Of a stretch of DNA of 64,000 nucleotides, positions 42,831 through 51,800 are shown piece after piece. The DNA is taken from positions 85,064,001-85,128,000 of the forward strand of contig NW_025963779.1 in assembly GCF_023055435.1 (NCBI RefSeq), written 5' to 3'. A program made the translations under genes and the position numbers. Each line of letters starts with the position of its first letter. Positions within the stretch are counted from its first letter, which is position 1. The stretch comes from Haliotis rufescens. Taxonomy: Eukaryota. The notes below the pieces were generated by a model. It was not told the origin of the DNA, searched no databases, and was given only the letters and a program-made list of their open reading frames with translations.

Positions 42831-45800
42831 ATGGATTTCCTTAACATAGTGGAGTGGTCGACAATCATTTTCACCATTCTCATGATGATGTCAGGAATGT
42901 AAGTTTGTAAACTTTTTATGAACTTATTAAAGGCAACTTTAGTATTTTTCAGAGACCATATAATAGATATTATATGGTCTCTGGTATTTTTGTATCAGAC
43001 ATTAAACAGATCAACATGCATTGGCGATAATGTTTACAAAAGGGGTATATGTTGTATATATTAACCGAGAAACCTTATTCCTGGTTCAACATACTTGGCC
43101 GACATGTTTTTAGAAGAGTTGAGAGTTGTCATTATATCCCTTTTAACCATAATTTCTGTTTCAAGAAAGAGTGAAACTGTTTGAATAGTGTGGACATCTC
43201 TCAAGTGTGTCATTCTGTGTTTACCTATGTACAGTAACAGTTTTGACAGCTTTAGAAATTGGCACTAGTCCTGTGCCCTTGCCAAACTAGCCAATACTTA
43301 AGGTATCATAAGGACCAGAAGAATTTGCCCTTTTTAAGGGTTTGTGTATCAGTATAAGCAGAGACCATATAATCTATTATATGGTCTCTGGTATAAGGAC
43401 TAGTGGACTAAAACTGTTAGTTTTTAACGCTGAGTTATATACGGTTTAATTTCATGTTCATTGGGAAAGGAATAAATTAATACTATTGTTTGTATATTTG
43501 TTCAGACATTATACTTTGGGGAATGAGGGTTTGCAGTTGAAAATGATCTCTCATCTGTCTGTACCGGTGCAGTCGGGTAACCTAGTGGTTAAAGTGTTCG
43601 CTCGTCACGCCAAAGACCTGGGTTCGAATCCCGACATGGGTACAATGTGTGAAGCCCATTTCTGGTATCCCACACCGTGACATTGATGGAATATTGCTAA
43701 AAGCGGAGTAAAACCAAATTCACTCACTCTCTCGGTACCATCAACTTACTGCTATCAATCCACTGCAGTTCTCCAACTATCCGTGTCAAGCCTGTCCCCT
43801 CAATAAGCCATATGGTTACTCTAACTGATGAGAAACTGCCGAAAACACTGCATTTTTAGCCACTATCAAATATTGGTGTATGCCCTCTTTCGACAGGCAG
43901 TTTGTGTCATCTCATTTTCCGTAAGAATTGGTCCAGGTTAATATTTAATTATTTAATAAATAATTTTGATAACCGATCTGGTTTTCACAACACAAATTGA
44001 ATTGGACTGCTGTATTGTAATCCAAACCAGGGCTCCACACAATATATTTAACCAAAGTTTGAGTATTTACTCACGGTATAATTCACATTGGGTATTGATA
44101 GTTTTCTTTGGGTATTAAATTTGTAATCTCTTGGGTCTAGTTTATTGGGTATTGTAAACTGATCACTGGACAATTTTCAAAATGATTCTTCTTCTATGCT
44201 GTTCAGGTAACTTGGAATTAGGATATGTTTATGTGCTGTTGTGATATGTGTTACAATAAGCAGGATGTCGCACATCCATTATTCACTACAGTAGGTTCAT
44301 ATAGGCATCAGTTAGAACAGATCCTTTAAAACATGCATGTATTCAAGCTCTAATAAATACATTGGGCAATTATGCAGTGTTGTATACTATTTGATGATCA
44401 AATTTCTTCATGCCTATTTGTAAACAAGCAGCTCAACATTAATTGGGTTATGGTGAGTTAGTGTGTGTATTTTACAGAAATATGCAGCTTTTCTGGAGCT
44501 CTGACAAACAAAGGAATGGAATATTTTAGGTTGAAAATAATATTAGGATGATGCAGCAACTAAAGCCAGAATTAAGTTGTCATATTTGTCCATATTTTAG
44601 GCCAAAGACTTTAAAATTTTAAAGATTTGTCACTGATAAAGAGCTAAATCTGGCCCTTGTCTTTTGTGACACCCCCAAAGAGTTTATTGGATGTGTGGCT
44701 GGTTGAATGTGACGATGGAATGTACACACCTGATGCATGTGCTTGTTTATAGATATATTACTACAAGTACATTGTACAAGTCATAATAAAAGATGAAAGT
44801 ACTGCTTGTGTTTCTGGGGTGTTTCCGTTGATATTTTCACTGTAGCCGTCAGCTCATCAGAACTTATGATGAAAAAGTTTGGCTGTTTATTTGTTTAAAT
44901 TACTCTTATGCAAACTGAAATAACATGGGAAAAAAGTAAATTTAATCAAACAAAATATCACATTGAATGTGAAATGTGAAGTATAACAATATAACAATAA
45001 CAAAAAGAAACATATTAACGTGATGCATTTCCCCTTCTGTAACCGTATGACACATTTCACCTCTGAGCGCCTTACATGATTAACTGAAAATGTAACTAGC
45101 CATATCAATTAATGCCAATTATGTAATAACAATCCCCCTTCACAGGAATAACCTCTGTTTATATGATACAACATATACTGTTGTTATCCTCTGGCCAGTA
45201 GTTCACAGTATTTAGCACATGGCATACTTACCGACTTATCGCGAAGATAAAAGTGACAGCTGGGTATTGAGAAACAAGCACAGTTGGAGATGGGGATGTG
45301 TTTGGCTTGTAATACACTATAAAACCTGAATGTCAATCCTTTTGTATGAATCAAACACCAATGTAATATTTACACACACACACACACACACACACACCTT
45401 AAATTACTGTGTAACACTGACCCATTTTGAAGGCGGTCTGTGTTTCCCGGTCATTTAAAGGTAGGGTGTGTTCCACAGTCTATTAAAGGGATCTGTGCTC
45501 CTAACTAATTTAAAGGCGCATCTCCCACATTCATGTTCTACACTTTAATGGAGGGGCTATGTTCTACCCTTTGGGGAGGGGAGGCTATGTTCTACACTTC
45601 AAAGGGGTGCTAAGTTCTACACTTTAAAGGGGGAATATGTTCTACACTTCAAAGGGGGGCTAAGTTCTACACTTTAAAGGAGGGCTTAAATAAGACAGAC
45701 AGGTGACCCATGAATGTTGCCTGCCCTTCTTTAAAGTTACCTGCCCGCATTCAGACATTCTAAATTTTTTTAAAACGCAAAAAATAAGAGAGAAATTATG

Positions 45801-48800
45801 TCTTGATTCAGTCGAAATAATGGTTACAATTACTTGAGAATCTACAAGAAGTCATATCGTCCGCAAGGACCCTTCAAATTCATTATTAGAGGTCCCCTGG
45901 ACCCCCACCTATGTAAGTTAGGGTAAAACCATGTAGACATATGACAATTTTAGTGCTGTTAATGGACAAGCCAGTGCTATGTGTAATTAAGGTGCTCCTC
46001 GTTCAATATGCAATGTGAAACTTGCGTGACGTGAATCGACTTGCCAGGACTGCCAGTTGGCAAGAGCCTAGTCGCAATGTAAAGCAAGTCATTGAAATTT
46101 CCAGCATTCATTCGACTATGGCAATAAACACTCGGAGCCTGGGACATGTACAGAATTGTGTTAATAAAACATGCTCCCAACCTCCAGTCCAACAATATCG
46201 ATAATGCCATCTCACCACTGACATGCCTGATTCATCTCCGGGCCACAGTAAAATGCCACTTTGATACTTTTAGTGATGGATTACTGATTAATTGATCACC
46301 TTTTTCTGTATAAACCTTCATATCAACCTTTTTGAAATATAAGATCAATATCGTCAGTAACCAGGTACACAAATACTAGTGGGACTTGCATACTCAACAT
46401 GATCTACATGTAAACTTACCATTGTAAACATGACAGTATTTAGGCCAAACTATTTTAATTGTTAGTTTCATGGATATTTTCCAGCTTTTCCACACAAGGT
46501 TGGTCAAAATAAAAATAAAATAAAATAGCTATGTTAATCATTTATTTATTATATTTATTTATCTGGAAGTCTTTCTGCTGTTGAGACATATTAAAAATAC
46601 ATATTTTTGTGTTTAATTTATTTCTTGGAAAGGCAGCTTTTCAGTAGGGGTGGCAAGCCCGTGAAACGAAAATTTAAAATGTGTGGTCTTACATATAAAT
46701 TGGACAAAACCATCACACCTAGGTTCAGTGTGAAACTATTTCATGGCTGTCATATTGTCTTCCATTGACATATTGACTACTGGTGCCATTATAGATGGAA
46801 CCAATCGTTACTCCTGTGTTTATTTTCGTTATCACAAAAAATCAATAATGTCTGATTGTCCCTTGTCCAGGATTAATTAGCAGCATGACACTCTCTGTTC
46901 AAGGCTACCTTTATCTGGCTGGCCGTGTTGTGAGAGGGACAGTGTTAATAGGCTATCAAGTGAGGTGTCCTTTATGTCTGATCAATAAGGTTGTATTGCT
47001 GTGATGTATATGCAAATATGTGATGGGAGTGAGAATTACATGATGCCCCAGGAGAGAACATTGAACCTCACCTAAGCTCGTAGAAAGGCTTCCATTTCTG
47101 CATCAGAGCAGCTGATCAGCGATTTTGTTGACACCGCATTGATGGTATTGATTGCTTGAGATGGAGAACCAAGTTACATCAATTTACCTGATTCAATTCT
47201 TTAAGGATTTTTACTTTTTGAAAGGTTAAATGTAAATGTTGTGAAATATTAGTGTTTACAGACAAATCGTGAAACCGTAAAACTTGCAAAGAAACATTAT
47301 GAAATGTGTTTGAAAATAGAAGTTGCTCCTAATAAATGATTTGAATATTTTTAATAATAGGTTCAGCCTCTTTCTTTTAAAGGATTTGGCTTATTTGCTT
47401 TTGTAGGACCTGAAAAATTATGATTTCATTTGGAAGTGAGCTCATCAGTGTTAATCAAACAAAGCATGACAAAGCAAAATATCACTTTTTCAATATTTAA
47501 TCATGCAATATTAATGCTGAGGTTTGCACACACAAAGATCTTTGTATTACATTGTATTACATTGTATTACATATACAGTCACTTATGCTTATATAAATAA
47601 ATAAATAAATAAGTACATAAATCTGTACAAGATGCTTTAACCGTCAGTATCAGAGAAATGTGCAGAGCTACGAGAAAGCTACTGGTGTCATTCAACCATG
47701 TATTTCCTTAAGCCAATATTCCATGGCAACAATGTTTTCACAACATGTGTTATTTGTGCTGATGCTTTTGTCCCTGTAGCCTCAGGATGTGCCCATGAGA
47801 AGGAGTCAGAAACTCTCCTGGTACTGATGGAACCGCAGACGTTGTTTTGTATAGAACAAGACGATGTCCACCAGCTGTTGAGCATGATAGTCATATATTG
47901 ATTATCATATTTACTTTAACGTCTATTGAGCATTTTATTATTGATAAACCTTTGGACCCGACCTCTTAAAAATGTTCATTATAATGTTAACAAGCATGCA
48001 TGACAAGCCATAAGCACACTGGCAATGTGTTTTGAAATCAATAGTAATCATTACTATTGATTTCAATGAAATATTTAATGCACAATTATGCCCCTGAAAG
48101 ACATATGAAATATTTAATATACAATTATGCCCCTGAAAGACATAAGCAAGCTCTCTGTGTTGGGTAGGTAATCATTAACACATTCATAAGCATGTCCTGA
48201 CTGACCTTTCCTTTGGTTCCAGACCACCATGTATAGCCATGTACAAGACGAAGGACACAAAGCATATTCCATTCTTCTTCTTCCTTATCTGCCTCATGAA
48301 GTAAGTATCACAAATCCATCCTCGGCACACAGGACTATTTTAAGTCCATTAGATTTACACCCTTGGTTTATCCATTAACCAGGGTAACAGTAATGTTGTG
48401 CCATGTGCATTCTTATGTTAATGGAATTTGGTGCATTATAGATGCACATTTTATTATCATCATCATCATCATAATCTGAACAATGAGGTAGCCTAATGGT
48501 TGAGTTGTTCACATGTCATGCTGAGGACCCAGGTTTGATTCTGACCCGTGAAGATCCAGGGTAGAATAGGTCTTCAGCAACCCAGTCTTGCCATAAGAGG
48601 CGACTATCCTTGTCGTAAGAGGCGTCTAATGGGATTGGGTGGTCAGGCTCGCCGAATTGGTTGATGCATGCCATTGTATTCCAATTGCATGGATCGATGC
48701 TCATGATGTCAATCACTGGATTGTCTGTTCCAGACTTAATTATTTACAGACCGCCATCATATAGCTGGAATATAAACAACAAACAAACAAACAAGGTTTG

Positions 48801-51800
48801 TTTCCCAACATGGGAATCCTTTCATTAGATCATCTGCCATAATATTGCTTGAATATTGCTAAAACCAGCATGAAACCCTACATCTCCCTCTTATCCATGC
48901 ACAGTTTGTGATATTCCTATGTGTCTACATAATATATATATATAAATATATACTTATCTGACATAGAAATCATATTGCACATATTAATATTTCACTTTGG
49001 CCACTTGCCAATAATCCAGGCCTTTGTTAAATAATCCATAGCCCTGTGATATGATGTTGTTAGGCAGGTCAGGATTACGGTATAATCCTGAAACATTGAA
49101 TGATAAGGGACTTTTTTCAGTGCTCAGGGACTGAAAGACGAACATATTTTTTAGAGGGGTGCCAAGTTTATTCAGCCAGTGTTATTTACCCGGGTCGGGT
49201 GGGTTCCAGGAGCAAAGGCTGCCCCAGCAGTCTGAGATATGTAAACACTCGAGTCCTGCCAGTCTAGTAATATTATTCCAACTTATACGATAAGATAAGA
49301 TAAGATTACACTTTATTATCCCGAAGGAAATTTGGGTAACAGAAGCACATGGCCTCAGCTTATTATCCCCCGCCGCGCGAAAGCGCGAAGCGGGGGATAT
49401 AGTATTCACGACCGTCCGTACATCCGTCCGTACGTCCCACCTGTTTGTTGCCGCGATATCTCAAGAACTAAACACTGGATTGTCTTCATATTTGGAACTA
49501 TGGTGTATATACAGACTCCGCAGACACCAGTCGGTTTTGGTGACCTTGACCCCATTTTCAAGGTCACAGCAGGCATATCTGCTTTTGGAGTTGGAAAACG
49601 GTGTTGCCGCGATATCTCAAGAACTAAACACTGGATTGTCTTCATATTTGGAACTATGGTGTATATACAGACTCCGCAGACACCAGTCGGTTTTGGTGAC
49701 CTTGATCCCATTTTCAAGGTCACAGCAGACAAATCTGCTTTTAGAGTTGGAAAACGGTGTTGCCGCGATATCTCAAGAACTAAACACTGGATTGTCTTCA
49801 TATTTGGAACTATGGTGTATATACAGACTCCGCAGACACCAGTCGGTTTTGGTGACCTTGATCCCATTTTCAAGGTCACAGCAGGCAAATCTGCTTTTGG
49901 AGTTGGAAAACGGTGTTGCCGCGATATCTCAAGAAGTAAACACTGGATTGTCTTCATATTTGGAACTATGGTGTATATACAGACACCGCAGACACCAGTC
50001 GGTTTTGGTGACCTTGACCCCATTGTCAAGGTCACAGCAGGCAAATCTGCTTTTGGAGTTAGAAAACGGTGTTGCCGCGATATCTCAAGAACTAATCGCT
50101 GGATTGTCTTCATATTTGGAACTATAGTGTATATACAGACACCGCATACACCTGTCAGATTTGGTGACCTTGACCCCATTTTCAAGGTCACAGCAGGCAA
50201 ATCTGTTTTTGGAGTTGGAAAACGGTGTTGCCACAATATCTCAAGAACTAATCGCTGGATTGTCTTCATATTTGGTAGTATGGTGTACAGGCGGGGGATA
50301 TTTCGTCACTCTGTGACAAATACTTGTTGATTAACACATTCGGTGTACATGTAAATAAAAGCATCACAAACGTAATTAACGTTAAATGTGGCATTAGCGA
50401 ATAGATGCGTTTGTTCTCAACATCGGCAATTGCAGAAGGAGGAAGTTGATACTCCGAATGTAAAATATACATGATATTGTTAAATATTTCACTTGCTTTA
50501 TTTATTAACTATTTGCTGTTCATAAATAGTCAGATTTATGACTGACACCACTCGAATGTTGTGGGACCTGTCTATTGGCAGCCATTCTGTAAAACAATAC
50601 AAAGTTGAAATAATTTAAAGGACAAACATACACAATAACAGTCAAATGTTACGACATAAAGAACATGTACAGATAGAATATATGCACATATATACATGTA
50701 TGTGTATACATGACGTCACACGATGAGTGCATGTGGAATGATGTAATGATGTAACTTCAGCATGCATTTATCATTCACATGGCAGAACAAGCAGCGCCAT
50801 CTGGCGTTCTTTATTTTCAACATTGTCCTTTAGCAGTTTAGTGTCCTTTTTGTACACTGAAGTTTGATAGTACACATTGTTCTATTTTTAAATATGACAT
50901 CTTTTGTTTGCGAGTTGTTAATTGGTATCGTTTCGTATTTTGACTTCATTATTCATATGTTAATAGTGAAATATATTTGTAACATTTTTTGTTCATAACT
51001 TTTGTCCTTTATTTCAACTTTGTAGTTTTTTTACCGAATGGCCGCCCATAACCTGTCTTGTGTCATCCGTGATGTGTTGTGTCTTGTATTGCAGTAGCAT
51101 GATTGGACTCTACTATGGTTCGCTCATCGACAACGGCATGCTGAAGATGCTCAACTTCGTGGGCACCTCATTGTGGGCCACCTACATTTTCGTGTATATC
51201 TTGGTGTCTAAAGTCAAGGTACCATCTCCCCAGTGACACGCTTGTGTTTTATTCTTTTACTCGTCCGACTTAGGGCAAGTTGTTGTTTCTTTGTTGTAGT
51301 GTGACAATGGGATCTTCCTGGACTCAGGAAACTGTGTCATGAAGCACTAAGAGTGTCCCTAGTCTGTAAATAATCAAGACTGGACAAGATAATCCAGTGA
51401 TTGACATCATGAGCATCAATCTATGCAATTGGGGTGACATGCATCCACCAAGCCAGCGAGTCTGACCACCTGATCCTGTTAGTCGCCTCTTACGACAAAC
51501 ATACGTTGTTGAACCTGGTTCTGCATTAGGACTATACATTTATTATTTCTTAGTAACACAAATAACATATATGGAAAAAGTAGGAATTTTCCACAGATGA
51601 ATCTAATTAATATTGATTATACTAGGGCTGGGACGGGTAACTTGGGAACTCGGGTCGGGTGGGTACTGAGTAGGAGCCGGATACCAACAGGACTACCCGG
51701 ACCCATGGTTAGTCACGTGATATGTTGTTTAATGACAAAAAGTTATCTTGAAATCTACAGTTACACTTCAAGTGACTAAAGTTTGCATTTCCTTTTGACT

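Follow-up and report, generated by a model that had tools for sequence, protein, structure and literature searches.

The window, a stretch of 64,000 nucleotides of DNA from Haliotis rufescens, contains a gene whose later exons match the Pfam family MtN3_slv (PF03083) and which was modelled as a SWEET transporter gene. The first intron of this gene starts at 42899 with a GTAAGT donor, the next exon candidate is found at 48223, and according to the inferred gene model two short palindromes are both located inside this intron, spaced by 409 bp (Table 1). The first palindrome (34 bp) is flanked on either side by GTATTTTT (8 bp), and the second one (32 bp) is flanked in the same way by GTATAAG (7 bp). 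Coordinates and repeats agree with the sequence-only reading, which had described two separate insertions about 400 bp apart in SWEET intron 1, each with its own direct repeat. A 15-mer of the terminal inverted repeat (TIR) from which the palindromes are built occurs four times in the window compared to 0.23 times expected (at most two mismatches allowed), and four or more occurrences were reached in 0 of 100 shuffles. A full element was seen at neither site of the window.

Table 1. Positions of the first SWEET exon, the two palindromic footprints and their flanking duplications in the window.
Feature	Position	Strand	Remark
SWEET (MtN3/saliva) first coding exon	42831..42898	+	Gene model inferred; later exons match PF03083
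Footprint 1 target duplication, left copy (8 bp)	42942..42949	.	In organism C, one contig runs from 42941 directly into 42984, one copy left
Footprint 1	42950..42983	.	18 nt of TIR (42950-42967) and 16 nt of the other TIR (42968-42983), no overlap or insertion; TIR read from the full-length element L126
Footprint 1 target duplication, right copy (8 bp)	42984..42991	.	
High-copy host repeat hosting the second insertion	43247..43433	.	Depth profile; paralogues with empty site
Footprint 2 target duplication, left copy (7 bp)	43352..43358	.	
Footprint 2	43359..43390	.	15 nt and 18 nt of TIR with one common base (43373); commonest family-A junction
Footprint 2 target duplication, right copy (7 bp)	43391..43397	.	

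The arm lengths of both palindromes had to be revised. Copy 1 had been read as 17 nt, one extra nucleotide and 16 nt; as the parent TIR carries an A at position 18, the extra nucleotide is part of the TIR and the copy is composed of 18 and 16 nt. Copy 2, taken before as 15 and 17 nt, holds 15 and 18 nt with one base in common. The supposed limit of 17 nt per end is thus wrong for family A, the TIR family of both copies, because each window copy has an 18-nt arm. The 8-bp duplication of footprint 1 is atypical, being the sole exact 8-bp case among 93 family-A footprints. An acceptor-like site at 42942-42954 of the window is formed by the T-run of the duplication and the first CAG of the TIR, approximately 54 nt past the donor of exon 1, and a tandem repeat of approximately 150 bp with open frames is present in a later SWEET intron at 49294-50330.

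Sites devoid of the palindromes were found in relatives and in paralogues. In a contig of organism C, 42941 is followed directly by 42984, so that 42 bp (34 + 8) are missing; organism B lacks a net 43 bp at this site, and in organism D two runs enter copy 1, one from each side. For copy 2, four distinct paralogous loci of its host repeat carry the single 7-bp site; contigs of other species break within this repeat. Therefore, both copies are insertions with target-site duplications (TSDs). Copy 1 is present in organism D and absent from organisms B and C, and its insertion and excision either fall between the splits of these organisms or reflect an ancestral polymorphism.

Genome-wide, the TIR 15-mer has 1,484 exact matches compared to 4 for the control, and 597 head-to-head pairs (13-nt arms separated by at most 30 nt) were found compared to 0, a number that includes copies amplified within host repeats and hence exceeds the number of events. 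Ends running on into the inner TIR amount to 269 (control: 29), and from the 597 pairs and these long ends a ratio of footprints to long elements of about 4:1 follows. The arms and junctions were measured in 136 distinct footprints out of at least 597, i.e., 93 of family A, 42 of family B and one unassigned; these represent the first rows of long-arm searches and are a non-random sample, which inflates the classes of 17 and 18 nt and leaves the edge between 18 and 19 nt unaffected. The lengths peak at 30-36 bp, and 52 distinct junctions occur among the 93 family-A footprints, which range from 25 to 52 bp. The junctions comprise short overlaps, blunt joins and A/T-rich templated fills, with a one-base overlap in 21 of the 93. 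An exact 7-bp TSD flanks 74/93 footprints of family A and 26/42 of family B (100/136 for the A/B set in total) as well as 48/69 rows of family D. The 100 exact 7-bp TSDs of families A and B, counted in both orientations, favour T at position 2 (138/200) and, likewise, A at position 6 (138/200).

Footprints also cluster across families. On seven contigs with 190 footprints, five cross-family pairs closer than 3 kb were observed compared to 0.21 expected, and 1 of 2,000 simulations reached five, under a null of uniform placement that leaves genome heterogeneity out. As footprints of different families cluster too, local hopping is not required for the 409-bp spacing in the window; shared target hotspots account for it equally well.

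The arms of both palindromes match the inverted ends of a P-type transposon of 8 kb, located elsewhere in the genome, over their outer 15-18 bases. When the genome was searched for P-type RNase H domains, 28 matches were obtained, among them the long element with the same TIRs and a P-type transposase that the sequence-only reading had proposed to look for. This family-A parent, L126 1860-9883 (8,024 bp), has the identical TIR, perfect over 30 bp, and the TSD ATGAAAG (7 bp). Its transposase ORF is interrupted; the ORF of the sister copy L125 encodes 881 aa with matches to PF21787, PF21788 and PF21789. In a search against solved structures, the only match of the A transposase was the Drosophila P transposase 6P5A (E 1.5e-13). 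Identical aligned residues are, in the 6P5A numbering taken from PMC7776569, D303, D528, E531, K385, K400, V401, S409, F443, D444 and N447; this includes D303, E531 and all eight GTP-site residues named in PMC7776569, and D230 lies beyond the printed alignment. The parent transposase is 100% identical to a protein listed by NCBI under Haliotis rufescens. The full-length elements of families A, B, C and D all have a 7-bp TSD, and homologues of the transposase are present in other molluscs, a hemichordate and an echinoderm. An RNase H DDE core with a GTP-binding insertion, TIRs around the gene and a TSD of 7-8 bp place the element in the P superfamily. TIRs were not found around the remaining P-type loci (L132, L133, L135-L139).

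The interpretation as excision scars of the P superfamily was supported by the 597 pairs, the variable junctions and the TIR-bounded element, and none of the outcomes named beforehand as contradicting it was seen: a length peak exists at 30-36 bp, the copies are not identical and the TIR bounds a transposase of P type. From the sequences, both palindromes are almost certainly P-superfamily excision footprints. As an overall explanation, end-joined excision scars of the 8-kb P-type transposon, with family tails probably of 18 and not 17 nt, are very probable.

Further long elements with the family-A ends are non-autonomous, 2.1-2.8 kb in length, with the 30-bp TIR and a 7-bp TSD. Such derivatives at L033-L039 (2.1-2.8 kb) are 91-98% alike and 76-79% identical to the ends of the autonomous element. 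At L031 1183-6653, a 2.8-kb non-autonomous A element is split by an insertion judged by eye to be retroelement-like, with frames of 552 aa and 1279 aa, and at L032 another one is truncated by an unrelated insertion. Within the autonomous A element itself sits a 35-bp family-A footprint, flanked by a 7-bp TSD (L125 8485-8519, L126 8679-8713, L134 9540-9574), placed between the C2H2 exon and the second ORF described below, where an element was inserted and then left. A more distant P-type locus, L132 3496-7875, shows the same convergent second ORF; it is enclosed by inverted repeats that are long and imperfect, and a search for a short TIR found none.

The architecture of the parents differs from that expected for a single-gene P or THAP9 element. 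The element had been called THAP9-like, for which the parent gave no support: Pfam THAP gave no match in the catalytic ORFs or in the 12/12 homologues scanned, and a regular expression for the full THAP motif gave none in six frames of the four elements, a search that a diverged or split THAP would escape. The catalytic ORF of family A ends approximately 40 aa past PF21789, the RNase H C-terminal motif. Neither an N-terminal THAP nor a C-terminal domain on the same polypeptide was thus found. Instead, the A, B, C and D elements have a second ORF on the opposite strand and a C2H2 motif located 510-630 bp from one end, and a Haliotis rubra gene model unites C2H2 motif and second ORF in one protein of 501 aa. 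At E <1e-10, the second-gene family comprises 1,209 representatives, and none of the 150 best is longer than 480 aa. PF12596 matched 4/40 second-gene homologues, all below the cut-off (best E 2.3e-4).

Sequence searches with the second gene against solved structures gave no match, nor did Foldseek with its predicted model (pLDDT 71). An exhaustive aligner ranked the C-terminal domain of the P transposase (6p5a_B) first of 48,161 chains with Z 8.6, a value below the safe level of the tool for helical folds, and rmsd 4.1 over 116/118 residues. A match to the C-terminal domain had been expected beforehand from a shared YxxGY...RGGL motif. All four parents appear to be devoid of a THAP domain, and their P C-terminal domain appears to be encoded by a second C2H2 gene in convergent orientation.

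The lengths of the footprint arms probably report how deep the TIR is cut. Family-A arms (n=186) show 10 cases at 17 nt, 85 at 18, 4 at 19 and one at 36, while family-B arms (n=84) show 23 cases at 16 nt, 34 at 17, none at 18 and one at 19; the B TIR is one base shorter than the A TIR ahead of the inner motif. The first base past a full arm is usually T (A: 71/90, B: 33/35), where the TIR has G. Near-full family-A joins, with both arms of at least 17 nt and at most 2 nt between them, were taken from a whole-genome list without the bias of long-arm sampling: among these 37 loci, 24 are 18+18, 10 are 18+17 and 3 are 18+G+17, and none is 17+17. The comparable B joins are 17+17 in 4/4 cases. The tail of family A is therefore, as far as footprints can tell, likely to be 18 nt rather than 17 nt. 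The same cleavage geometry as in Drosophila P, assumed by the sequence-only reading, was not recovered, as the arms of family A read 18 and not 17 nt and those of the sister families differ.

Families C and D have unequal ends, so that the contribution of each end to a join can be followed. The parent of family C is L124 2131-9456, and 132 footprints were assigned to it. In 12/15 measured footprints the join clearly consists of the left end and the right end, the other three having one arm too mutated, and about 3 of the first 50 loci listed resemble pairs of the same end. These left-right joins exclude a simple hairpin duplication. None of the arms in the 15 measured footprints exceeds 17 nt, and they terminate in C; the joins listed include a clean 17+17 and two 16/17. 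One long family-C arm was noticed among the loci.

In the parent of family D, L128 531-7801, the inner motif is preceded by 18 nt at one end and by 19 nt at the other. With a query corrected for a private base change in the reference copy, 69 left-right matches were obtained. In the 69 rows analysed, with one locus counted twice and one duplicate pair collapsed, long right arms (n=16) match 19 nt in 10 cases and 20 nt in 6, never 21, and long left arms (n=26) match 18 nt in 3 cases and 19 nt in 23, never 20. The extra matched base at both ends is T, which is the next letter of the TIR there and also the letter that usually follows full arms in families A and B; hence the left end reads as 18 or 19. 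The three left arms that stop at 18 are followed by a base other than T. A 38-bp product (19+19) was found in 0/69 and a 37-bp product in 3/69 matches, and from the missing 38-bp and the rare 37-bp join 18/19 is favoured for family D. Depths of 18/19 had been predicted before informative D footprints were examined, and the right arms then stopped at 19. From these alignments, the right end of family D reads as 19 nt and the left one probably as 18 nt.

The arms indirectly support a long stagger, the length of which reads as 18 (A), 17 (B), 17 (C) and 18-19 nt (D). When cuts are aligned in this way, all six ends continue with KGGAY, and we lean toward this inner motif, and not a fixed ruler of 17 nt, as what may set the cut, a rule based on four related families. 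A ruler specific to each family's transposase (17, 18 or 19 nt from the tip), with the match to KGGAY due to shared descent and family D cut at 19/19, would fit the 19 nt matched by 23/26 long D left arms, and the four families of the sample are related. It is possible but appears less probable, as the 38-bp 19+19 join that it predicts is missing from all 69 D matches, and the 37-bp product, which under 19/19 would be a perfect one-base overlap without trimming, is seen in only 3/69, comparable to the frequency at which full-length arms are joined bluntly in A and B; the D left arms that end at 18 before a non-T base also speak against it. A further reading keeps the P footprints and assumes that the cut is canonical or shorter, at 17 nt in A and at 16 nt in B, with a nearly obligate untemplated A added in repair. 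Since A and B arms both terminate in A, 17+A and 16+A give identical letters, so that the sequences of these arms accommodate it equally, and polymerase theta is able to add untemplated bases. This is nevertheless unlikely: the A is templated at that very place in both TIRs, joins without it are missing in A (17+17 in 0/37) and in B (16+16 or 17+16 in 0/4), and the depth differs between families regardless, as D right arms reach 19. The family-C arms that end in C at 17, with their clean 17+17 and two 16/17 joins, are evidence against an obligatory addition of A.

Explanations other than P excision fare considerably worse. A self-mobilising micro-MITE of about 32 bp would account for one 32-bp junction at many unrelated sites (21/93 in A), each with its own TSD. 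However, a one-base overlap of the two tails would be expected to yield just this 32-bp junction, the copies show neither the uniform length nor the uniform sequence of a MITE (52 distinct junctions among 93, 25-52 bp, with a sharp edge of arm lengths), and the copies lack the inner TIR half, with which the transposase makes contact in the Drosophila structure (PMC7776569). With this diversity of junctions and the arm edge, the micro-MITE is largely ruled out and is the least probable of the readings. Random internal deletion or aborted gap repair of longer elements could explain the few footprints that exceed the tail, such as the 36-nt A arm and the long C arm, as in aborted synthesis-dependent repair, yet it is highly improbable as a general origin, as random loss gives no edge and only 5/186 A arms and 1/84 B arms go past it. 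Excision by hAT elements leaves no TIR on the flanks; a hAT origin was rejected, as the transposase is of P type, the TIR is kept and the TSD is mostly 7 bp.

For Drosophila P, the 17-nt stagger and its footprints are established (PMC7776569, PMC2895639, PMC10983969, PMC5466332). In the Drosophila structure, the inner TIR half is recognised by a helix-turn-helix domain and the terminal base is held in place by GTP, and the single strand is looped out across the C-terminal domain, its nucleotides -14 to -18 being disordered; in the review describing it the 17 nt are described as a hallmark and the order in which strands are cleaved, and the mechanism, as not known (PMC7776569). The excision of the abalone elements may accordingly be pictured in several steps. 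The element inserts and duplicates 7-8 bp, as shown by the empty sites. The transposase would then cut one strand at the tip and the other within the TIR, so that each flank keeps a 3' tail of TIR sequence, as suggested by Drosophila biochemistry and by the edge in arm length. End joining would trim, overlap or fill these tails, in line with junction classes that match the Drosophila table. How deep the inner cut falls is likely fixed by the KGGAY motif; in the four families this would amount to 18 nt (A), 17 nt (B), 17 nt (C) and 18/19 nt (D). The enzyme likely consists of a catalytic protein and a second one with C2H2 finger and C-terminal domain, encoded by convergent genes, an architecture that is seen in the elements with a putative cooperation of both. 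Anchoring at two independent points that are joined by a flexible loop would permit 17-19 nt. Taken together, a widespread two-gene P lineage of marine invertebrates, in which the cut of the non-transferred strand is set by the motif, the stagger varies from 17 to 19 nt, even unequally at the two ends of an element, and the looped-out strand absorbs the slack, is put forward as a tentative proposal. If true, footprints in genomes report the cut geometry of a transposase without biochemistry.

The abalone scars resemble the end joining at donor sites of Drosophila P{wa} as given in Table 1 of PMC2895639: TIR remnants lie between TSDs, the arms do not exceed the tail, and microhomology, blunt and templated-insertion junctions occur. 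In contrast to these, the abalone scars are natural, inherited through the germline and found at genome scale in a mollusc, the TSD is 7 instead of 8 bp, and the tail in family A is 18 instead of 17 nt. With the Drosophila P transposase 6P5A, as described in PMC7776569, the parents share an RNase H fold split by a GTP-binding insertion, a TIR of approximately 30 bp and a C-terminal-domain fold present in the element; they differ in that no THAP domain was found in the abalone parent and that the region similar to the C-terminal domain is on a second convergent gene after a C2H2 finger. The zebrafish element THAP9/Pdre2 is likewise a non-insect P-like element that excises (PMC10983969), and has, according to PMC7776569, a 13-bp TIR, an 8-bp TSD and a THAP domain, unlike the abalone parents.

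Galileo has long TIRs and a THAP transposase. Galileo and 1360, both of the P superfamily, are similar to the abalone elements in their 7-bp TSD and P-type catalytic core, a likeness taken from descriptions of these elements. A search of the open literature turned up neither natural P footprints in molluscs nor a variable stagger nor two-gene P elements; the two-gene layout may already be catalogued in subscription journals or Repbase. P excision footprints as such are already known, and what this analysis adds is the identity of the parents, a cut depth that appears to vary and a transposase that appears to be split. With four natural families that differ in the spacing from tip to motif and have 69 to hundreds of repair products each, the positioning of the inner cut becomes experimentally tractable, and a split, THAP-less architecture would constitute a new layout in a much-used transposase family. 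The scars themselves are a large natural record of end joining in the mollusc germline and dated presence/absence markers between species.

Some footprints have been multiplied or altered after their formation. One family-A footprint was copied passively within a host repeat to several loci on C1 (L041, L042, L146-L148), and a family-C footprint was amplified to at least 8 copies in a tandem array at G000:C41:209161-210014. The family-B footprints L097 and L256 have long TA runs between their arms and are possible microsatellite seeds.
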